Notes under the pieces: model-generated
The model's database searches: none
Told to the model about the DNA's origin: nothing
What the model saw: the letters and a program-made list of their open reading frames with translations, nothing else
In this document: one piece after another, positions 2,191 through 38,580 of the stretch
Layout of the letters: every line of letters starts with the position of its first letter
Numbering within the stretch: position 1 is the stretch's first letter
Translations under genes and position numbers: made by a program
Assembly: GCA_963760795.1 (NCBI GenBank)
Contig: CAVXEP010000032.1
Coordinates: 32,001-96,000 of the forward strand
Source: an uncultured delta proteobacterium
GTDB lineage: Bacteria; Desulfobacterota; Binatia; UBA9968
DNA: 64,000 nt
Direction of reading: 5' to 3'

Positions 2191-4104
2191 ATGGCCATGA
2201 AGCTTATACCGCGGTTGCCCCCTCTCGGCGCAAGATGGCTGCTTTGGCTCGGCTGTGGCGGGCTGACAGCGATCCTGGTGTTGATTGGCATCATCGATTT
2301 TGTCAGGCTTCAAGCGATCGCGACGAGTTTCGAGAAAGATAAAAACGTCGCCAAGCCTCGCGCCTCGGCTGGGCAGGAATTGGAAATCAAAGTCCTTGGG
2401 TATTCGTTGAGCGTATGGCGATACCTGGGCGGTAGCGATGCGGCGCGCCAACGGGCGGCCAAAGAGGCAGCGGACGTGGCGCTGCAGCTCGACGGATATA
2501 CGGCGCTGGCCGAGACCGCGCGGCAACGGGAACTGGCGGCGCGGCTGCGCACCGGCTGGCAGGATGTTCACGCGTTGGGCGAGGCGCTGATGGCGGCGCG
2601 CACGGCGAATCGCGACAAGTCGGACCGCTTTTCGGAACAGGTTACTAGGCTGGAGCAGTTGTTAGATTCCGAGTTGCAGCCGGACGCGGAAATCATTTTT
2701 AGCCCGCTCAGTGCCGAAACTCATGGCAGCCTCCAGAAAACCGAGATCGTTACGTTGTCCCTGCTATTTCTTGGACTGGCGATCGCGCTGACGATCAGCA
2801 TGGCGGTGGTGCGCGCGGTGCTTGCGGGCGAAGCTCAATTGCGCGAAAGCAAGGAGCGGTTAACCAGCCTCAATGCGATGTTGGAGCAGACAGTGGACCA
2901 GCGCACGCAGGAGTTGCGCCAGATCAACGAAGATCTCGATCAGCGGGTCGTCCAAAGAACCCGAGCGCTGGGGGATTCGCAAAAGAAGCTCCGTGCTTTT
3001 GTCGAGCAATTGACGCGCGCCGAAGAGCAGGAACGGCACCGGTTGGCGAGCGAGTTGAACGACTACCTGGGGCAATTGCTGGTTGTCAGCCAGATAAATC
3101 TCGGCCGCGCCGAAAAGTTTGCCGTGTCGGACAACGCCAAGAATGCGTTCACCGACGCCCGGCAATCGCTGGACGATTCGATCGCCTTCACACGCACGCT
3201 CATAGCGCAGCTGAGCCCGCAGGTGCTCTACGATCTCGGCCTGCCGGCGGCGCTCGCCTGGCTCGGCGAACAGATGGAGCAGCAGCATGAGTTGCGGGTC
3301 GAGGTGGTCGGCGATTCCGCCGGCTTTGTGCTTGACGAGGCGCGCGCGATATTGGCCTTTCAGTGCGCCCGTGAACTGTTATGGAACGTGGTCAAGCATA
3401 GCGCGACCCAAGAAGCGAGGGTTTGCTATGAGTTGAAAAATGGCGAGCTGAGGGTTGAGGTCGCGGACCGAGGCCGGGGGTTCGACCTGGCCAACGTCGA
3501 AAGCCGGGCCGCCGGAAGCGAGAAGTTCGGACTGTTCGGCATGCGCCAACGTTTGGAACTTCATCAAGGTCGGCTGGTGGTCGAATCGGCGCCGGGGCAA
3601 GGAACTTCAGTGAAAGTGATCTTGCCGGTGGCGGTGGTGCCGGCGTTGCCGGCAGCTTCGATTAAGCCCCACGCGCCCGAAGAGTTTAGGGTCACGACGA
3701 ACAAGCCTGTGCGCATCGCCTTGGTGGACGATCATGAGATGGTGCGCCAGGGACTGCGCTGGCTACTCGAAGACCACCAAGACATCCGGGTGGTCGGTGA
3801 AGCCAAAGGTGGCCGGGAGGCGATCGACCTGGCCCATGAGCTCAAGCCCGACGTAATCGTCATGGACGTTAACATGCCGGGGATGAATGGCATCGAGGCG
3901 ACCCGGCGCATCGTTGAGGACCAGCCCGGGGTGATCGTCATCGGGCTATCGTTCGCCAGCGATCCGTCCATCCAAGCGGCGATGAAGAATGCCGGCGCCT
4001 ATGTTTGCGTGACCAAGGAGCGGGCGGCGGAGGATATCTATCGAGCGATTGTCGATGCCGTGAATCAACCGCTGCCACCTGGGCGGATCGATGACGCGCG
4101 GTAA
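2191..4104 (+). CDS. Membrane-bound hybrid sensor kinase (2 TM, periplasmic helical domain, HisKA_3, HATPase_c, NarL-type REC), copy 2
   Basis: Two hydrophobic segments, coiled coil, kinase boxes and C-terminal receiver; H-box reads ELND instead of ELHD. Confidence 0.9.
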
Positions 4105-5941: not shown

Positions 5942-6919
5942 ATGCTGAAAAGCTTTTCGATCGCGATTCTGTTGGTGTTTGTTTTACCATCGGTTGGCGC
6001 AGCTCAATCCAAGATCAAGTTTCCCTACAGCATTACCAGCAAGAGTCTGGGTTATGGGCCCATGTTGGCGTCGGCGAAGCTGGGATTCATGGAACGCGAG
6101 GATTTGGAGCCGCAGTTGGTTTATGTGCGCGGCGCTGATAAATCTCTCGCGGCTGTGCTTAGCGGTTCGGTCTTCGTCTCCGCCTCCGGTTCGGATGCGC
6201 ATATCGCCGCGGTGGAGCGTGGCGTCGATCTGTCGATGATCGGCGGCACCATCAATGGCTTGTCGCAGGTCATCATGACGACCAAACAATTCCAAACGCT
6301 CAACGACTTGCGCGGTAAGATCATCGGCGCCACCAGCGCGACTTCCGGCTTGGGCTTTGCCCTGCGCCGTTATATGAAAGGCAAAGGCTTTGAATTTGGC
6401 CGCGACTATCAGATCCTCGCCACCGGCAGCGCCGGGCCGACATTGGCGGCGCTGGCGGCTGGGCAGGTGCAGGCGGCGGCGCTGGGAGTGCCATTAAACT
6501 TTATCGCCGCCGATCAGGGTTTTCACGGTGTCGGCCGGATCGTCGACGTTATCCCGAGCTACCAGTTCGGCGCGTTCACGGTTTCCCGCCCAGTAGCGGA
6601 GAAGAATCGACCGTTGATGGTGCGCTTCATGCGCGCCATGATCTCGGTGCATCGCTGGTTTTATGCTAACAAAGAAGCGGCGGTGGCGTTTATGGCGAAG
6701 GAGTTGGACATGACGTCGGATTACGCACGGCGCGGCTGGGAGTATTACGTCGAGCATAAGATTTGGCCCATGGACGCCAGCGTGAATATCGAGGGCATGA
6801 ATGTGGCGACGCAGATTTATTGGGAGGCGTCGCAGTCAAAGGGAGCGGCGCCGAGCGGGAGCAAGTACGTCGATCAGAGTTTTCAAAAAGATGCGCTAAA
6901 GGAACTGGCCGGGCGTTGA
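5942..6919 (+). CDS. ABC substrate-binding protein, NitT/TauT (SsuA/THI5-like) family
   Basis: Signal peptide; GFMEREDLE, DLRGKIIGAT, AALAAGQVQAA motifs. Confidence 0.9.
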   Translation: MLKSFSIAILLVFVLPSVGAAQSKIKFPYSITSKSLGYGPMLASAKLGFMEREDLEPQLVYVRGADKSLAAVLSGSVFVSASGSDAHIAAVERGVDLSMIGGTINGLSQVIMTTKQFQTLNDLRGKIIGATSATSGLGFALRRYMKGKGFEFGRDYQILATGSAGPTLAALAAGQVQAAALGVPLNFIAADQGFHGVGRIVDVIPSYQFGAFTVSRPVAEKNRPLMVRFMRAMISVHRWFYANKEAAVAFMAKELDMTSDYARRGWEYYVEHKIWPMDASVNIEGMNVATQIYWEASQSKGAAPSGSKYVDQSFQKDALKELAGR

Positions 6920-8073: not shown

Positions 8074-9054
8074 ATGACGAAGTTTCTGCCGCACTTTTCA
8101 TTAGTTCTGATCTTGGTTGCGGCAAATGCTTTGGCGCAGGAGAAAGTGAAATTTCCCATCAGCGCCTCGTCGAAGACCCTGGGCTACAGTCCGCTGTGGG
8201 TGGCGAGCAAGCTGGGTTTTTTCGATAAGCAGAACTTGGATGTCCAGCTGGTGCTGGTATCGGGGGCCGACAAGTCGACCATGGCGCTGGTCGGCGGCTC
8301 GGTGAACGTCTCCAGCGGCGGCGCCGATACGGTGATCGCGGCGGTGGAGCAGGGCGCGGACCTGGTGTCCATCGGCGGCGTCATCAATGGTCTGACGCAC
8401 TACATCATGGGTGGCAAGAAATTTAAGTCCTTCGAAGATCTGCGCGGCGCCAATCTCGGCTCGTCGGGGCTGACTTCCGGCACGGCGTTTGTGCTGCGCC
8501 GGGTCTTGCGGGCGAAGGGGCTGGAGTATCCGCGCGATTATAATCTGATCAACGTCGGCGGATCGGCGCAGGCGTTTCTGTCGCTGACCGCCGGGAGAAT
8601 TGATGCGGCGATCATCGCCGTACCGCTCAATTACGAAGCGGCGCAGATGGGCTATCCGGTGATCGCTAAAGTCGTCGACTACATTCCCAACTATCAGTTG
8701 ACCGAAGTCACGGTGAAACGGGCCTGGGCGGAGAAGAACCGTGGCTTGACCGTGCGCTTCATGAAAGGTTTAATTCACGCCATGCGCTGGATGCATGACA
8801 ACAAGGATCCGGCCATCGAGTTCTTATCCAAGGAAATGCAGTTAAAGCCCGAGCAGGCGCGCCGCGGCTGGGACTATTACACCGAAAACAAGATCTGGCC
8901 GCCAAACGCCGAGACCAACATCGAAGGCGTGCGCACGGTGATCCAAATTGCCGCCGAGCGCGGCCAGTTCAAAGGTGGCGCGCTGCCGCAGCCGGCGAAG
9001 TATCTCGATCACAGCTACGTTGAGGAAGCTTTAAAGGAGTTGGGAAAAAGATAG
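8074..9054 (+). CDS. ABC substrate-binding protein, NitT/TauT family
   Basis: Paralog of 5942..6919 and 31365..32351 (KFP..SK.LGY; GLEYPRDY). Confidence 0.9.
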   Translation: MTKFLPHFSLVLILVAANALAQEKVKFPISASSKTLGYSPLWVASKLGFFDKQNLDVQLVLVSGADKSTMALVGGSVNVSSGGADTVIAAVEQGADLVSIGGVINGLTHYIMGGKKFKSFEDLRGANLGSSGLTSGTAFVLRRVLRAKGLEYPRDYNLINVGGSAQAFLSLTAGRIDAAIIAVPLNYEAAQMGYPVIAKVVDYIPNYQLTEVTVKRAWAEKNRGLTVRFMKGLIHAMRWMHDNKDPAIEFLSKEMQLKPEQARRGWDYYTENKIWPPNAETNIEGVRTVIQIAAERGQFKGGALPQPAKYLDHSYVEEALKELGKR

Positions 9055-31364: not shown

Positions 31365-32351
31365 ATGAGGAAAGCGATCATGATGCCAATCCTTATCGCA
31401 ATCATCCTAGTCTTTGCATTGTCAACGCCGGCAGGGGGCCAGGAGCGAATTAAATTTCCCGTCGGCGTTTCGTCCAAAGTCTTGGGTTACGGGACTCTAT
31501 GGGCGGCCTGGCGGCGCGGTTATTTCGAGCGCGAAGGGCTCGATGTCGACGTCGTGCTCATGCGCGGCACGGCGCCGGCGGTGCAAGCGTTGATCGGCAA
31601 CTCGATCTCGGCGGCGTTGCTCGCCAACGACGGGCCGATCACCGCTGTCGAGCAGGGCGCCGACCTGGTCATGGTCGCCAGCGGCAGCAAGATTACCCAC
31701 ATGCTGATGGGCGCGAAGAATTACAAAACCTACGAAGACCTGCGCGGCGCGACCATCGGTTCGTCCACGTTAACTTCCGGCACGACCTTCGTGTTGCGCC
31801 GCGCGCTCAAGCTCAAAGGGCTCGAGTATCCGCGCGATTACAAACTCCTGAGCGTCGGCGGTACTACCGAGGCGTTTCTGGCGATGAATGCCGGCCAGAC
31901 CGCCGCGTCGATGATGGCCGTGCCCTATTCATTCCGGGCACAAGAGCTGGGGTTTAATTTAATCGGCCGCATGGTCGATGTCTTTCCCAATTACCTGCTC
32001 TCGGCATTTTCGGTCCGGCGCAGTTGGGCCGAGAAGAACCGGCCGGTGGTCGTGCGGTTCCTCAAGGCGGTGGTGCGCGCGAAGAAATGGTTCGAGCAAG
32101 ATCGCAAGGCGGCGATCGAGTACCTGGCGAAGGAATTTCAACTGACGGCGGCACTGGCGGAAAAAGGTCTGGATTATTATCTTCAAGCTCCAGCCTGGCA
32201 CCCTGAACTGGAGATCGAGATGGATGGCTTGAAAACCGTCGTCGATATCTACGCCGAGCAAAACAACTTGAAGGGGCCGACTCCCAATGCCGAGAAATAT
32301 GTCGATCAGAGTTATCTGCGCCAGGCGTTGAAGGAGATCGGGCTGAGATGA
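31365..32351 (+). CDS. ABC substrate-binding protein, NitT/TauT family
   Basis: Paralog of 8074..9054. Confidence 0.9.
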   Translation: MRKAIMMPILIAIILVFALSTPAGGQERIKFPVGVSSKVLGYGTLWAAWRRGYFEREGLDVDVVLMRGTAPAVQALIGNSISAALLANDGPITAVEQGADLVMVASGSKITHMLMGAKNYKTYEDLRGATIGSSTLTSGTTFVLRRALKLKGLEYPRDYKLLSVGGTTEAFLAMNAGQTAASMMAVPYSFRAQELGFNLIGRMVDVFPNYLLSAFSVRRSWAEKNRPVVVRFLKAVVRAKKWFEQDRKAAIEYLAKEFQLTAALAEKGLDYYLQAPAWHPELEIEMDGLKTVVDIYAEQNNLKGPTPNAEKYVDQSYLRQALKEIGLR

Positions 32352-32610
32352 CGGGCTAATTTCTGGGTCCATGCAGTAGACCCGTAGTCATCATATCGAT
32401 CAGAATTGATCAATCGTGTCTACCAGTATTCACGCCGGTAGATCGGTGACGGACAATTCACGGACAGGATGAAAAGAACATAATAAGATCAGTCCCTTTG
32501 AATGGAATTACCAATCAAGCGTTCCGAACCCGATAACCGGGTTGAGAGCCGGATTGCGAGCGAGTACCATTGTCCTAAAGAAAAACTTAGTTTTGGGATT
32601 CGTGGAGTAC

Positions 32611-33804
32611 ATGACATTTAATCTTCCTCTCTCTCAAATTGATGCGAGGATGCTCGAAAGCCTCATGACGGACAGTGTCCCGGAGGGGCGTCAATTGGAG
32701 TACAAAGAGGCTCTTCCAGGAAACAGCGACGATGACAAGCGTGAATTTTTGAGCGATGTTACTTCTTTCGCAAACTCGGCGGGTGGTGATCTACTATTTG
32801 GTCTCAAAGAACGACGCGAGGCGGGAAGGCCAACCGCTGAGATTGAGACGATTGCCGGACTTCCAGGACTGAACGTCGACGCTGAGCGCCTCCGATTCGA
32901 AGCAATGATCCGCGACGGCATTGCCCCCAGGATGCCGCTGGTCAGTTTTCATAAAATCTCTCGAGATCCTGACCCTCCATGTCTTTTACTCCGGGTGCCG
33001 CGAAGTTGGGCAGGACTCCACATGGTAACCTACAAGAATTCCAGCAGGTTTTATTCCCGGACATCTGCGGGCAAATACCAACTTGATGTCCATGAGATCC
33101 GTGCAGGATTCGTAGCGGCCGAAATCGCAATAGAACGCCTTCGGCGTTTCAGGACGGAGCGAATCGCAAGGGCCCTCGATCTTGAGGCGCCAGTTGCCAT
33201 TGCGACTGGGCCGAAGCTGATCCTACATGCTCTCCCGATTAATATCCTAAATGAAGTGTGGCCTCGCGTCCTCACGATACAAGACCAAGTGAATGCGGGA
33301 GCCGTATCGATCATCGGTGGAACTTTCACATCGTGGAGGTTTAACCTAGACGGGTTTGTCGTACATACTCTTGTGCGCGATCTTAGTAGGCAGTGTTATA
33401 CGCAACTATTCCGAGACGGTGGGATTGAAGCGCTCAGCGGCACTGTGATCGCGAGAGACGAGCAGCGCAACGGTTTTTACGCATGGGGAATGGAAGCGCA
33501 AGTCATCGCGGCGCTCCAGAGGTATCAGAACTTCTGGCAGACGATTGGGGTAACGCCACCTATCCTCATAGGCTTAACCATATCTGGTGTTAATGGATGG
33601 AAGGTGCTGCAAAACCCGTATGGCTTCAGCGATTTGGACGAGGTGATCGACCGGGATGTCATATCGCCTCCCGACGTAGTGTTATCAGATTTCGCCAGTC
33701 CCCCGGATGTTGAACTCCGGCCACTATTCGACGTTGTCTGGAACGGCGGGGGCTGGCGCGGTTCCCCCAATTATAGAGATGGAAGATGGGTTCCGCCTTC
33801 CTGA
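32611..33804 (+). CDS. Schlafen/AlbA_2 domain protein with uncharacterised C-terminal domain
   Basis: VPEGRQLEYKE, DVTSFANSAGGDLLFG, FY.R motifs; TQLFRDGGIE in the C-terminal part. Confidence 0.85.
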   Translation: MTFNLPLSQIDARMLESLMTDSVPEGRQLEYKEALPGNSDDDKREFLSDVTSFANSAGGDLLFGLKERREAGRPTAEIETIAGLPGLNVDAERLRFEAMIRDGIAPRMPLVSFHKISRDPDPPCLLLRVPRSWAGLHMVTYKNSSRFYSRTSAGKYQLDVHEIRAGFVAAEIAIERLRRFRTERIARALDLEAPVAIATGPKLILHALPINILNEVWPRVLTIQDQVNAGAVSIIGGTFTSWRFNLDGFVVHTLVRDLSRQCYTQLFRDGGIEALSGTVIARDEQRNGFYAWGMEAQVIAALQRYQNFWQTIGVTPPILIGLTISGVNGWKVLQNPYGFSDLDEVIDRDVISPPDVVLSDFASPPDVELRPLFDVVWNGGGWRGSPNYRDGRWVPPS

Positions 33805-33989
33805 ACTCATCGGCAACGTGGAGCAATTCGCTCGAGATTCTCAAAAGTTATTCGAAGAATTTTGTTCGTTGGTGACGGGGAGCCTGAGAGTACCCTTGGC
33901 GCCAGAACTAAATGCCGCCGGGTCAGGAATCGGCGCTCAATGCTCGGAATCCATTATGGAATATAGCTTTCTGAATGCCCTGCTTGATG

Positions 33990-34135
33990 CTTGTCCTTCT
34001 TTTGTCCGTGTACATGAAACAACAAGACCCAAGAAATACCGTTGACGGCAGCACTCAGGACTTTGTTTTTGTTGGGCTCTGGTGGCTATTTTAGGCTGTG
34101 GTTACGAACGATATTCGATTGACAATCAGCGGCGA
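33990..34135 (+). repeat. att-like element, copy A
   Basis: Aligns nearly gap-free with 37214-37357: tgtcc..ttttgtccgtgtaca, hairpin, core gatt-GAC-aatc. Confidence 0.7.
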
Positions 34136-34546
34136 CAGAGGGCTCCTCTAGCTTGGTGAAGCCCAATCTCATATGGTGACGCGGTTGCCAGTTTTTAACC
34201 TAAGGAAATAGATATCGGAGTTTATGTATGGGGATATTTCGCATTGACCGTACAAAAGATGCTGTAATCTGAGCCTGCGAAAACTAGCCTTTTCCAGTTC
34301 ATCTATAGCGCGCCCAAATAAACGTCCTTGCGAAGCCGAGCACTATAGCGACTCATTCAAGCTTCTTGCTAGATGCTGGATAACCATCTTCAACATCAAA
34401 ATACTCGGGGGTCGGAGAGAGCACTTCTAAAATCGATTACGACCTCGTGCGGGTAAACTTTTTGATCGCCGAAAGGGGAGGGTTAACGGCGTCCCACCAG
34501 GTTTGTGTGTTTTCTACGCCGCTCGAACGATAGTCATTAGATTCTC

Positions 34547-35192
34547 ATGCCAGCCAAACTTAATTCTTCCTTAATTATGAAGGCCCTTGAACCATCGCCT
34601 TGGGATCGATCTGGGCAACGATGTTCGCTACCGCCTCTGTGCCTCACATCCGCTACACACAGAGCTTCAAGCGGTAATCGCCAAGGTCTGGTTAATTGGT
34701 CGACCGTATGCAGCAGCAATTGAGCGTCGCAAAAATAGGGAAACCAATGAAGCGAACGACGTCTTCTATGTGAAAACTGCGGCGCCGACCATCATGAATT
34801 CCAAAATCGATTGTTGGATTGCAATGGCACGACAGAAAAGTCCCGTTGGACCGAGTTCACTCACAGTGTCACTTAAGGTTCATCGTCGCACGACGGAACT
34901 CTTTAAAAGGATTAGTGAACAGGAAAAACGCGCTCTCGCATCAAAGTATCTCCACTTCCATGTGCCGCGAATGTTCTATATCTACGATAGTCGCGCGGTG
35001 ACGGCGATTAGCGCACTTTCCAACATAGTCGGCCGTGTCGGTAGGAATTCGTTTGAGGGCGATAACGAGTATCGGAAATTTGCCGAAAAGTGCGTCAGGC
35101 TTCAACAGCACGTTCAAGATCATTTCGGAGTGAGCCTGACGCCCCGTGAAATAGACAACTTGCTTCTAGAGATACATACAGCACGGGTTTAG
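34547..35192 (+). pseudogene. Hypothetical protein with HhH-GPD-glycosylase-like motif, disrupted by a GATC duplication
   Basis: Removing one GATC at 34604-34611 gives MPAKL..PWDLGNDV.Y..AKVWLIGR.YAAAIERR..LASKYLHFHVP..IYDSR. Confidence 0.65.
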
Positions 35193-35623
35193 CCTGCACC
35201 TCTACCTCGGTAAAAAGCGCGTTGGCCAGTGGGTGCGAGCTCATGCGGAGGCGGGTTATCGCCGGTGGCGCGGCGCTCGATTCGTCGGAGGGCAAGGCCC
35301 GCTGCGAAATTCTTAACGGCTTCATCGTTGACAGACGCGGCGAGGCGCAGATCAGCACTGCCGATGCGCGATGAACTATGACTCTATCGCCAAGACACTC
35401 GCTTCGGTAAGATTAGGCCTTGCGCCGTTTGCGATGCAAGAGAGATGCAAAGCGATGTAGCGGCCTTGTTTCTACACGCCGGAAATTGGTCTGTATACGG
35501 GTGTAACCGCAGTAACTGCTACATGAAACTGTAGAGTTCAATTCAAACTAAAAGGAACGACAGGGAAGAAATTTCGCAGTAAACGTCTGAGCCGTCAAAA
35601 TGGCGACTTGACCCTAACGTACC

Positions 35624-36001
35624 TTATTCCAACTGCCCCATAGCGGTAACTTGATAAGTCACCCTATGGAGATGCCCGTCTGAATCTCTAATGCATACCC
35701 TACTTTGCAGGAATATAAGTCTGCCACCAATAGTTGTCCAGCGGCAATTATCCACTGCCCACCCCGCGTTGACGGCGTTGTTCTGATTAGAAATACTAGC
35801 CAACGAGACCACAGGGACAACTCCATCGATGCGTCTCCAACCAGGACCTATTATAAGAAAAAGGTCATCGCAACGCCAGGAGCCTCCGGTTCCTATGAAG
35901 TCGAAAACCGGATAGCCGGAGAGAAAGACGAGATCCCGACCGTCTGGGGTTTTTGTCCGCATCTCATGCGGAGTTTCAATGAAGCTAGGAAATATTGGCA
36001 T
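35624..36001 (-). CDS. Hypothetical 125-aa beta-rich protein
   Basis: Strong RBS AAGGAGG before ATG; SLASI..AGWAVD..RDSDG motif-like sequence. Confidence 0.75.
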   Translation of the reverse strand: MPIFPSFIETPHEMRTKTPDGRDLVFLSGYPVFDFIGTGGSWRCDDLFLIIGPGWRRIDGVVPVVSLASISNQNNAVNAGWAVDNCRWTTIGGRLIFLQSRVCIRDSDGHLHRVTYQVTAMGQLE

Positions 36002-36249
36002 AGCACCCCTCCTTGTGGATCATTAAACCGATTTCTATGCGCTTCAAATGCTATCTCGTTTTTCGCATCACTTCCGGAATTTCCCCCAAATGATAACGCC
36101 ACAAATTCGTCAGGCGTGGGAACCTTATTCTCCTTCCATTGTCGGACTGCGCAAGATTCCACAAAGGCCACTACTTAACCGATTGGCGGAGCTTCTATAT
36201 TCGGAAGAGGGGCCTCGGTTCCGGTATTGAACCCCTGATTGTACCCAGG

Positions 36250-36462
36250 TCATCTTCTTCCCGGCGTCGTCCAAGTCTCCACCGTCATCTCTCTTGCCGG
36301 GATTGTCCAAGTCTCCACCACTGCCACAATCTCTCCGCTCATCTCTCTTCCCGGTGTTGTCCAAGTCTCCACCTGGGGAATTTCTTCCATAACAGAAGAA
36401 GATTCCTCTCCCGATACACCGTTCTTTGCCCTGCTAAGAGGGTCGTCTTTTTTTCCTTGCAT
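36250..36462 (-). CDS. Small protein with three VETWT(T/I)P(G/A)RE(M) repeats
   Basis: RBS-like AGGTAGGTGA; ~35-nt repeat three times (36250-36374); third copy lacks one G. Confidence 0.55.
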   Translation of the reverse strand: MQGKKDDPLSRAKNGVSGEESSSVMEEIPQVETWTTPGREMSGEIVAVVETWTIPAREMTVETWTTPGRR

Positions 36463-36653
36463 AATTTATCACCTACCTTTTCAATATCTTCCATCTTTTC
36501 TCATGGTTTTTTAAGATATTCATTAGTTGGTTGTATTCCTACCACAGAGACCGCATTCTGTAAAACACGTTCAAACTTGGCTGCCGCGGTGGCGATGACG
36601 ACCGAAGGGACGGTAATGAGGATTCTCATGAGAACCCCCGCTGGGCGGTCACC

Positions 36654-36899
36654 TTAGTCCCCAAACACAATGAAGATAACGCTTACCGCGACGAAACCAA
36701 TAATGGCTAACGCGCAATATTTTATCGTCCGCAACGCTTCGACTCGGGCTGAAATGAAGGACGCGGACGGCAGGATCAGAGTCGTTCTGAATGCAGCCAG
36801 ACGTTGAAGCAGCAGCGGAACGGTTTCACTCGCTAGCGGAAGAACTGACCACCTGTGAGCAGATTTCGATGTTATCAGTGGTCTAGTCAAGCCACGCAA
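36654..36899 (-). CDS. Small hypothetical membrane protein
   Basis: C-terminal hydrophobic helix; begins at the attC-like GTT; start uncertain. Confidence 0.35.
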   Translation of the reverse strand: MRGLTRPLITSKSAHRWSVLPLASETVPLLLQRLAAFRTTLILPSASFISARVEALRTIKYCALAIIGFVAVSVIFIVFGD

Positions 36900-36957
36900 C
36901 GGTTTGCCGCTGAGCTGCCGCGTTTTTCAGCGGTCGGCTCCATCGGCTGGTCTACGC
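36894..36957 (-). other. Degenerate integron attC-like site
   Basis: Minus strand: cagccgatggagccgaccgc-loop-gcggcagctcagcggcaaaccGTT; bulged palindrome; R'' AAC is degenerate. Confidence 0.55.
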
Positions 36958-37213
36958 TTAAATTGAACTGAATTTTCCGTTAATCTAATTCCTGGTTGTC
37001 CGTCTTCTGTCCGAGAACTGTTCCCGAAGAGACCCAAACAAACCCAACGATGGAAGCATTAAGCTGCAAATTTCATTGGGAATGGATGGGTCCATTCGGT
37101 CGCTGTTACGGCTTCTCTTCGATTCGTAATCAGTAGCTTTCCGGTTTGAATTCAGAGAAAAGACAGACTTGCACATGGCAGCATCGCACTCCTACACCCA
37201 CCCTTGGCGATCA

Positions 37214-37376
37214 TCTGTCCGCCTTTTGTCCGTGTACAAGTAACAATGAGCCCCAAGCACTGCCATCTAAGGCGGCGATTGGGGCTCGTTGTTGTAGGGC
37301 TTTGACGGCGGTCTCAGGGACTAGTCACGATTGATTTTTGAATGGCATTCAAGCGGTCGTCGGTTCGATTTCTGAC
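37214..37376 (+). repeat. att-like element, copy B, ending in a tRNA-Ala(GGC) 3' fragment
   Basis: tgtccgccttttgtccgt; 15-bp stem aacaatgagccccaa/ttggggctcgttgtt; then anticodon arm and T arm. Confidence 0.75.
37337..37376 (+). pseudogene. tRNA-Ala(GGC) fragment (anticodon arm, variable loop, T arm)
   Basis: TTTGA-ATGGCAT-TCAAG-CGGTC-GTCGG-TTCGATT-(T)CTGAC; no D arm, acceptor stem or CCA. Confidence 0.75.
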
Positions 37377-37599
37377 TTCGCGCGGAAATAGGCCCTTGAG
37401 ACGCTTGAGCTCTTTCAGTTGGACCGATGGCGCCAGATAGTCCACCCATTTCAAAACTGAAAATCTTCGTAGCGGCGCAGCCAGTTGGGCGTGCAGGCAG
37501 CCTAACGGAAAAATCAGTGACCTACTGAGTACCAGGTACTGTGAAAATGGTGAATGTGTTATAAGCGTCAATTGAATCTTGGGCCTGAGAGGAAACGGC

Positions 37600-38580
37600 A
37601 TGAACATCGACCTCCATTCGCATTTCTTTCCCGTCGAGGCGTTGCAGAATCCCGGCAAGTTCGAAAACCGCGCGCCGAAGCTTGTATTGAATGACGGCAA
37701 GCTGGCGGTGACATCGCAGATCGGATCTCGCCCTGGGTTGGGCGCGGGAGCTTACGATCCGCTGGCGCGGATCAAGGCGCTCGATCAAATGAAGATCGAC
37801 ATGCAGGCGATCTCGCCGTCGCCGATTTTACTTTTCTACTGGGAAGACGCCGCGGTGGCAGCGCATTTCTCGCGCCGGCAGAACGAAGCTATTCAAGATG
37901 TCGTCAAGAAGCATCCGGATCGGTTTATCGGCTTTGGCAGTGTGCCGCTCCAGAGTGTTCCCGAATCCATCGCCATCGCCAAGGAAGCCAAGAGCATGGG
38001 CCTCAAGGGGCTGGAGATCGGCAACGCGGTGGGGGACAAACCGCTCGACGATCCGAGCTTCGAGCCATTCTTTCAAGTAGCGCAGGAGTTGGAACTGCTC
38101 CTATTCGTCCACCCATTGGAGGGCGGGCTCGACGCCGACGATCCGCTGTCGCCGATTCTTGGCAATGTTTTGCAGTTTACCTTTCGCACCACGCTGATGG
38201 TCGAGCGCATGATTCTCAAAGGTATGTTCGAGAAGTATCCCAACCTGCGCTTATGTCTGTCGCATGGCGGCGGCTTGTTGGCTTTCAACATCTGGCGTTT
38301 GGATCACTCCTATGGTCTGCGCCGAGATTTGCAGAAACAGTTGCCGAAGAAACCATCGCAATATTTGCACCAGATGTACTTCGACACTATCGTTCACTCG
38401 GTAGCGGCTTTAGACTATCTCGTCCGAGTCGTCGGCGCCGACCGGGTAGTGATTGGCACCGACTATCCGATGGGGATGGGCGACTTCGATTCGGTGAATA
38501 AAGTCATGCAGCTCAATCTGACCGATCGCGAACGTGCGGACGTTCTCGGCGCTAACGCAAGAAATGCCTTGCAACTTTAA
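37600..38580 (+). CDS. Amidohydrolase_2, ACMSD-like decarboxylase
   Basis: IDLHSH, LFVHP, LSHGGG, YFDT, GTDYP. Confidence 0.9.
   Translation: MNIDLHSHFFPVEALQNPGKFENRAPKLVLNDGKLAVTSQIGSRPGLGAGAYDPLARIKALDQMKIDMQAISPSPILLFYWEDAAVAAHFSRRQNEAIQDVVKKHPDRFIGFGSVPLQSVPESIAIAKEAKSMGLKGLEIGNAVGDKPLDDPSFEPFFQVAQELELLLFVHPLEGGLDADDPLSPILGNVLQFTFRTTLMVERMILKGMFEKYPNLRLCLSHGGGLLAFNIWRLDHSYGLRRDLQKQLPKKPSQYLHQMYFDTIVHSVAALDYLVRVVGADRVVIGTDYPMGMGDFDSVNKVMQLNLTDRERADVLGANARNALQL

Follow-up and report, generated by a model that had tools for sequence, protein, structure and literature searches.

A 64,000-nt stretch of DNA from an uncultured delta proteobacterium of the Binatia (GenBank assembly GCA_963760795.1, contig CAVXEP010000032.1, positions 32,001 to 96,000), hereafter called the window, carries three copies of a module of about 150 nt, which we designate A, B and C. 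The module begins with two tandem TGTCC-type repeats in an 11-bp phase, continues with a hairpin, and ends in a short palindromic core. It is probably the P arm and core of an attachment (att) site used by a tRNA-targeting, arm-binding tyrosine integrase, the copies in the window being relics of such sites. The module belongs to a repeat family in the genus, cores of well-preserved copies coincide with tRNA sequence, relatives hold related arm repeats next to integrase genes, and the segment that contains the window's copies is missing from five relatives. The assembly to which the window belongs (G000) comprises 6.58 Mb in 35 contigs and is 89% complete; the window lies on its contig C32, and its 43 tRNAs served as the host set with which the cores in the window were compared.

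Copies A (33990-34135) and B (37214-37357) can be aligned locally with identical bases in 98 of 140 columns. The alignment scores 60, a value reached by none of 1000 dinucleotide-preserving shuffles (15.6 ± 2.3), and the pair was recovered with an E value of 2.5e-07 in a BLAST search of the whole genome. Copy C resembles the other two weakly, its score being reached by 2 (against A) and 6 (against B) of 1000 shuffles. The pattern TGTCC-N6-TGTCC is present four times in the window, at 33992, 36997 and 37216 on the plus strand and at 32451-32466 on the minus strand, versus 0.05 expected occurrences, and none of 100 shuffles gave four. An earlier note on this DNA, written from the sequence by a model, had described A and B as closely aligned, att-like repeats with tandem TGTCC arms at 11-bp spacing, and both features withstand these controls; copy C and the inverted arm pair at 32450-32466 had escaped its author. 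The hairpin that it assigned to each copy is strong in B (−36.3 kcal/mol, z −6.1), but has been lost from the plus strand of A, which folds no better than shuffled sequence (−9.7 kcal/mol, z +0.45). Copy A is also about 21-30% diverged throughout and has lost one arm base. In agreement with the note, the window contains no integrase, as judged by Pfam and by tblastn of this part of contig C32 with the two integrase types discussed below (P4-type and Int-2) as queries; ARAGORN found no intact tRNA gene in it, and no Rfam family matched at gathering score.

In copy B, positions 37338-37370, which run from the anticodon stem into the T arm as the earlier note had recognised, agree with the host tRNA-Ala(GGC) in 30 of 33 bases. 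The core of copy C is identical in 16 of 16 bases to positions 30-45 of the host tRNA-Thr(CGT) (GATTCGTAATCAGTAG), an agreement with an E value of 1.2e-4 among the 43 host tRNAs; extended over the T arm, it covers 26 of 33 bases. The core of copy A matched none of these tRNAs (best 9 nt, E 0.64). It is symmetric, as had been noted when it was taken for a Val anticodon with a preserved dyad, but the assembly lacks tRNA-Val(GAC) and contains only tRNA-Val(CAC) and tRNA-Val(TAC) of this specificity. Not one of 60 other genomes contains an exact copy of the 17-mer around this core, and the near matches, the loci of which were not inspected, differ from each other, unlike those of a conserved tRNA gene. 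Relative to the copy on contig C12 of the same assembly, about 4-5 of the 17 bases are changed, in line with the overall divergence of about 21%. We read copy A as a decayed site of the Ala type, the core of which appears to have drifted; with no host match, no conserved hit in 61 relatives, divergence throughout and the hairpin gone, the proposed retargeting to tRNA-Val(GAC) is not supported. The broader idea that the architecture is tied to more than one tRNA specificity is, given Thr(CGT) in the window and a Val(CAC) core in a relative with the same architecture. Agreement with the target tRNA that starts at the anticodon stem and continues in the 3' direction was found in B, in C, and in copies from the genomes G029, G039 and G041, and not in A. 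Indeed, 50 nt of the G029 copy are 100% identical to that genome's own tRNA-Ala(GGC), through CCA, and the copy in G005 likewise extends to the acceptor end.

The arm repeats connect the module to a family of tyrosine integrases. In G039, a near-complete genome of the same order but of another family, TGTCCGTGTTTTGTCCG lies 47 nt beyond tRNA-Ala(GGC), and next comes the convergent gene of a 352-aa tyrosine integrase, which we call "Int-2" (Pfam Phage_integrase, E 1.4e-23). The same order is seen in G041, the Int-2 of which is 99% identical, and elsewhere in both genomes arms TGTCCGTCTTTTGTCCGTGTAC and a hairpin are separated by about 55 nt from tRNA-Ala positions 28-76. Homologues of Int-2 occur in 21 of 61 relatives. 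All 16 Int-2 loci that were fetched contain a tRNA gene, and at 14 of these the integrase is convergent with it (coordinates read by hand); the tRNAs are Ala-GGC, Ala-CGC, Val-CAC, Leu-CAA, Leu-TAA, Ser-CGA, Thr-CGT, Lys-CTT and Lys-TTT. Between tRNA and integrase stop, six of the 16 loci have a strict TGTCCG-N5-TGTCCG and two more have variants of it, and in several of the remaining ones other tandem hexamers could be made out by eye in the same 11-nt phase (TGTGCC, TGTAGC, GCGTCCG, TGGCCG). Such repeats, varying with the integrase subfamily but fixed in position and phase, are as expected of arm-type sites. Because the module shares its tandem repeats with the spacer between tRNA and Int-2 stop, we read it as the P arm and core of an anticodon-type att site.

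The 11-nt phase of the module fits the arms of Int-2, and not the 10-nt phase of TGTCCGGCATGGTCCG in the spacer of the P4-type integrase. In G000, the TGTCCG pair motif is found 10 times genome-wide, at least 6 of these in modules or att relics. C-terminal fragments of Int-2 lie beside P'-type arms at C3:231503-231703 and at C9:646-867 of this assembly, the latter adjoining a tRNA-Thr 3' remnant. A cognate integrase next to the site is thus present in G039 and G041 and, as fragments, elsewhere in G000, and is missing from the window. The recurrence of the TGTCCG pair beside a tyrosine integrase family strengthens the earlier description of the module as att-like.

Displaced tRNA fragments that span position 27-31 to the 3' end are found in G029, in G039 (two copies), and, from tRNA-Val, in G003 and G035, the last being an unpublished genome on which this Val-type comparison partly rests. 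They are of the anticodon-centred class, in which the Islander paper (PMC4383910) counts 2083 of 3919 islands. An element of this class brings along the 3' portion of the tRNA, starting at the anticodon stem; its core, derived from the anticodon arm, is symmetric, and its integrase gene adjoins the tRNA. Integration regenerates the tRNA gene, and the displaced 3' fragment comes to lie at the other end of the element. The module shares this segment and core, but the sites in the window differ in being orphaned, in not lying at a tRNA gene, and in lacking a complete attL/attR pair; in addition, all dispersed copies that reach the core keep the full anticodon arm.

In the arrangement that we propose, the module would be one half of a site-specific recombination site, as in attP and attR, of elements that insert into tRNA genes. 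Its two TGTCCG repeats would be the arm-type sites of a lambda-style arm-binding integrase, the likely candidate being an enzyme of the Int-2 family of about 350 aa encoded convergently with tRNA genes. The hairpin, about 22 bp long and bordered on either side by T-runs, resembles a bidirectional terminator; in analogy to lambda sib/tI, it may terminate integrase transcripts that run across att, or make them unstable. A spacer of about 45 nt would separate the hairpin from the tRNA segment. That segment, a copy of the target tRNA that starts with the 5' strand of the anticodon stem, would restore the tRNA upon integration and may mark a crossover centred on the anticodon. The window would then represent B (Ala(GGC)), C (Thr(CGT)), A (decayed Ala) and a set of inverted P' arms within an integrase-less mosaic insertion at a non-tRNA site.

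In phage lambda, the integrase gene is transcribed toward att, arm-type repeats are present on both arms of attP, and a hairpin beyond the core in the P arm acts on integrase transcripts only while attP is intact. The module shares with this system the direction of the integrase gene toward att, the arm repeats, and the hairpin in the P arm, for which a corresponding role is suggested by analogy. It is unlike lambda in that the target is a tRNA gene and in that arm motif and integrase are unrelated in sequence.

At a threshold of E <= 1e-8, the 31 genomes of the genus yielded 29 copies of the module in 16 genomes, with 1-4 per genome, some of them near an integrase or an intact tRNA-Ala as the earlier note had anticipated. 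Outside the window, G000 holds copies at C3:234391-234533 and C12:229666-229822; copy A is nearest to the one on C12 (79% over 147 nt) and copy B to the one on C3 (79% over 146 nt). Fifteen copies, when aligned, have a mean column identity of 82%. The left boundary is sharp, at TGTCCGCCTTTTGTCCG (TGTCCG), and the alignment ends on the right with GAATGGCATTCAAG, to which some copies add AGGTCG; tRNA positions 27-43 are retained in every copy that reaches the core. Classified by their flanks, five copies directly adjoin the stop of a P4-type integrase gene, one has a fragment of such an integrase 1.3 kb away, four continue with a tRNA 3' half that extends to the acceptor end or almost as far, three are truncated before the core, and about 16 have other right flanks. 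A separate palindromic motif, GGATTGAACTGA(A/T)TTCTCC...TCAATCC, which may be a repetitive extragenic palindrome (REP)-like element or a conserved leader, recurs in intergenic regions, with 11 sites in G000 (for example C12:228936 and C9:104183), and often adjoins module copies on the left or right (G005, G017, G013, G025 and G027).

Several observations weigh against the att-site reading. In no case among the 29 copies does the break fall within the anticodon loop, the match to the tRNA stopping instead at position 43, 46, 49, 54/55 or 76; the dispersed copies are thus not simple products of crossover in the anticodon loop at secondary sites, an origin implied by the earlier note. About 16 of them stand beside ordinary metabolic genes, and among 50 open reading frames (ORFs) of 22 loci, Pfam recognised neither a tyrosine nor a serine recombinase within 1.5 kb, and just one DDE transposase. 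The window's genus yielded no intact Int-2 specific for Ala(GGC); the closest full-length homologue is 55% identical and sits at tRNA-Ala(CGC). The N-terminal residues of Int-2, about 65 in number, have no match in Pfam. No single contig was found to hold an intact attL/attR pair with a module: G041 has the module 180 kb away from the tRNA with its Int-2, in inverted orientation, and G039 has them on different contigs. Finally, TGTCCGGCATGGTCCG also occurs in the tRNA-to-integrase spacer of the P4-type integrase, so that Int-2 is a putative arm-binding protein only. For the Int-2 at tRNA-Ala(CGC) in G018, attR was not found within the 17.7 kb available. A second tRNA-Val-like site in G053, considered as an att fragment, turned out to be a complete second tRNA gene.

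The position of so many copies between ordinary genes, often near gene ends, would be expected if the module, while derived from an att site, were now an autonomous dispersed miniature repeat that carries a terminator and is kept for hairpin termination between genes. Such a repeat would also agree with the sharp left edge, with the preservation of the anticodon arm in every copy that reaches it, with a stable hairpin that has T-runs on both strands, and with the presence of a 224-nt unit of module plus right extension at unrelated loci in G025 and G027, and in part in G018. We nevertheless consider this explanation unlikely. The ends of the module (TGTCCG... and ...TTCAAG) do not qualify as terminal inverted repeats, no target-site duplication was found for any solo copy, and two tries with the flanks of G029 and G025 gave no clean syntenic empty site, so that the module is unlike miniature inverted-repeat transposable elements and REP-type repeats in its ends and in its insertion sites. 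Moreover, copies are few in each genome, their right ends vary in length, and a simple terminator scan did not call the module hairpins.

The five copies of the att-type module that abut an integrase stop codon lie in islands of another kind. In G000, a P4-type integrase of 415 aa, with Arm-DNA-bind_3, Phage_int_M and Phage_integrase domains, is encoded downstream of tRNA-Ala(CGC) on contig C12, and a broken copy is found downstream of tRNA-Ala(GGC) on C3. The island on C12 (C12:210745-231226, 20.5 kb) is bounded by a 17-nt direct repeat of tRNA-Ala positions 53-69 (C12:210745-210761), beyond which the sequence is similar to that natively flanking tRNA-Ala in G029 and G013; the island on C3 (C3:231845-237741, 5.9 kb) is bounded by a 14-nt direct repeat from the same tRNA positions (C3:231845-231858). 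The attR repeats of these islands are preceded by TTTATCAATAYGTTAT and, on C3 and in a third example (G006:C24), by GGGGCAAC repeats as well; GGGGCAAC repeats are present on both island arms, including just before the integrase start. The module was considered as the attR of P4-type islands and rejected, attR being the 14-17-nt repeat of tRNA positions 53-69. P4-type islands, which use the T-stem/acceptor portion of tRNA 3' ends, are thus represented in G000 at tRNA-Ala(CGC) and tRNA-Ala(GGC), and the module differs from their att sites while lying inside such islands at five loci. Homologues of the P4-type integrase without a module occur at the transfer-messenger RNA (tmRNA) gene, at tRNA-Thr, and at one tRNA-Ala(GGC) locus. 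At the tmRNA 3' end in G006:C47 and at tRNA-Thr(CGT) in G007:C4, homologues with 81-84% identity have conserved spacers containing TGTCCGG.ATG.TCC. In G029:C14 (7759-11600 of the fetched locus L027), a gene for a large serine recombinase (Resolvase, Recombinase and Zn_ribbon_recom domains) is present as fragments that adjoin tRNA-Ala(GGC) at its 3' end.

The five fused loci are on C12 and C3 of G000 (C12:229666-231301 and C3:234391-237814), on C8 and C12 of G014, and on C11 of G019. In all five, the module is inverted relative to the integrase gene, and in four also with respect to the adjacent tRNA, the exception being C12 of G014, where no tRNA gene could be located next to the integrase. 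Identity to tRNA-Ala(GGC) extends from position 27 to 54/55, and the reverse-complemented integrase stop follows 0-3 nt further. Read from the integrase stop, the order is inverted tRNA 27-54, hairpin and TGTCCG arms, with a 28-nt inverted repeat formed with the upstream tRNA gene; it spans the tRNA's anticodon arm, variable loop and T-stem. On contig C35 of G007, the core alone is kept after the integrase stop. We read the fused arrangement as a P arm of the Int-2 type that was captured once by a P4-type element and was kept, perhaps as a terminator of the integrase gene. It seems doubtful that it is functional rather than fossil at these five loci. Conceivable roles would be that of a sib-like retroregulator pairing with read-through transcripts of the tRNA gene, of a landing pad letting Int-2-type elements enter P4-type islands, or of one end of an invertible integrase cassette. 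For the last of these, the predicted junction between the tRNA 5' half and the reverse-complemented integrase end was not found: a pattern scan gave no hit in metagenome contigs and returned only the three known uninverted loci from genome contigs.

The position of the module right after the integrase stop at these loci, where a 3' untranslated region would hold about 28 nt antisense to tRNA-Ala 27-54, is also what could be expected of a small structured RNA, either tRNA-like or a regulator of the integrase mRNA, rather than of a DNA site. The hairpin is accordingly strong, with z scores of −5 to −7 in three of four different copies that were folded. It is, however, conserved mainly as sequence, with compensatory changes in only 2 of 27 predicted pairs; no Rfam family was matched at threshold, a permissive scan of three module loci returned a real tRNA and a sub-threshold tmRNA/tRNA-like match, and no promoter was found inside the module. 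We regard an RNA function as very improbable.

The att relics of the window, listed in Table 1, all lie in an insertion of at most 5.18 kb. This segment is recognised as an insertion because the two genes that flank it adjoin each other at 25-135 bp in five relatives (G021, G009, G013, G022 and G002). Homology to relatives ends at 32349-32352 and resumes at 37532 (G003) or 37599, and the G+C content is 0.45-0.52 inside compared with about 0.58-0.62 outside. At the same junction (32352/37532), unrelated inserts of about 0.55-1.6 kb were found in G019:C30, G003:C7, G007:C45, G016:C696 and G011:C99, so that the space between the solute-binding and the amidohydrolase gene is a hot spot for insertions. 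The order within the island, read from the left, is inverted P' arm pair, Schlafen AlbA_2 ORF, copy A, unannotated ORFs, copy C and copy B. At its left end, a tRNA 3' remnant-like GGGTTCGGAAC is followed by about 55 nt and the arm pair, a layout that matches the one beside Int-2 genes in relatives and on contigs C3 and C9 of G000.

Table 1. Att-type relics and associated features of the window (positions in the 64,000-nt stretch)
Feature	Position	Strand	Remarks
Insertion, at most 5.18 kb	32353..37531		Between NMT1-type solute-binding gene (31365-32351) and amidohydrolase gene (37579-38580)
P'-type arm pair TGTCCGTGAATTGTCCG	32450..32466	-	Read as relic of an attL-like end; the integrase gene expected next is missing
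420-aa ORF, Schlafen AlbA_2 domain, island cargo	32542..33804	+	Pfam PF04326, E 3.4e-11
Module copy A, Ala-type P arm, decayed	33990..34135	+	79% identical to C12 copy over 147 nt, E 2e-27
Copy A arms	33992-34007	+	First arm TGTCCT
Copy A hairpin remnant	~34018-34068	+	Folding −9.7 kcal/mol
Copy A palindromic core GATTGACAATC	34117-34127	+	Symmetric; no tRNA match
Module copy C, Thr(CGT)-type	36997..37165	+	Arms TGTCCGTCTTCTGTCC at 36997-37012
Copy C core GATTCGTAATC	37121-37131	+	Followed by degenerate T-arm remnant
Module copy B, Ala(GGC)-type, best preserved	37214..37376	+	Arms 37216-37231, hairpin 37241-37294
Copy B core GAATGGCATTC	37340-37350	+	tRNA-Ala-like segment 37338-37370 runs into degenerate T arm

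Searches of the island ORFs with NCBIfam and PADLOC returned nothing. Two ORFs were considered as integrases and rejected: that at 32542-33804 encodes the Schlafen AlbA_2 protein, and that at 37314-37700 gave a best BLASTP E value of 0.42 against the P4-type integrase. Also inside the island, three tandem units of about 44 nt, each ending in GTCCAAGTCTCCACC, occupy positions 36240-36373 and display a strong negative GC skew.

The empty sites of the five relatives contain no tRNA or tRNA-like sequence. The tRNA-like tail of copy B is therefore not host DNA, and B itself is an internal relic, attP-like or from a tandem junction, rather than the recombination joint of the insertion. No directly oriented, matched attL/attR pair is present among the relics of the island. 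These results bear on the model of the earlier note, in which the modules are working, cargo-bounding sites of an integrase-free array that captures genes serially and is mobilised in trans. That model draws on features that we also observe: A, B and C have one orientation and part small cargo segments within 5.2 kb, two tRNA specificities, Thr(CGT) in C and Ala(GGC) in B, are found 219 nt apart, relatives of Int-2 with the same arm motif target different tRNAs, and the core of A retains its dyad symmetry. Against it stand, besides the decay of copy A in hairpin, arms and core, the absence of an intact integrase of either type from the window and the location of the insertion away from any tRNA gene; the island is indeed missing from relatives, as the note's proposed check of empty sites had foreseen, but those sites hold no tRNA. 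In addition, Int-2 reaches only 22.9 bits on the NCBIfam integron-integrase model, compared with a cut-off of 265. Parts of the stretch were detected in 20 soil/rhizosphere runs (best word share 0.27), and four soil runs, which gave only short, low-depth contigs, contained neither an island-skipping contig nor a circle junction, a result that is uninformative on excision. Overall, we give active capture or mobilisation in trans, with A retargeted, little chance of being correct.

Elements resembling cis-mobilizable elements (CIMEs) are flanked by att sites, lack recombination genes, and can in principle be mobilised in trans; the island is like them in combining att-type sites and cargo without an integrase, and unlike them in that its relics do not form a matched direct att pair. 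From an integron cassette array it differs in having no integrase in the window and in a module that carries tRNA sequence, whereas attC sites are not known to carry any.

Two further sets of repeats are present in the window outside the island. A segment of about 1.1 kb is duplicated at 1-1135 and 2588-3724, 2.59 kb apart, with 98-100% identity, and three paralogous genes for NMT1-type solute-binding proteins share blocks of 60-81% identity at 6202-6903, 8334-9038 and 31637-32335.

For the window itself, the analysis is mainly a clarification: what had looked like an island without integrase but with retargetable sites turns out to be a mosaic of relics of att sites and not a new capture mechanism. 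The modules are relics rather than a working capture system, and together they form a fairly ordinary mobile-element footprint; att sites of tRNA-targeting tyrosine integrases are already a known kind, of which the window offers another example. Beyond the window, the module illustrates how the att sites of an uncharacterised family of integrases in metagenome-assembled genomes (MAGs) from soil are built: the arm hexamers vary with the integrase subfamily, the layout is constant, and the cores come from Ala, Thr, Val, Ser and other tRNAs. The hairpin in the P arm invites a test of lambda-sib-like function, and the anatomy as a whole could help to delimit islands in fragmented MAGs and to pick pairs of integrase and att site as tools.

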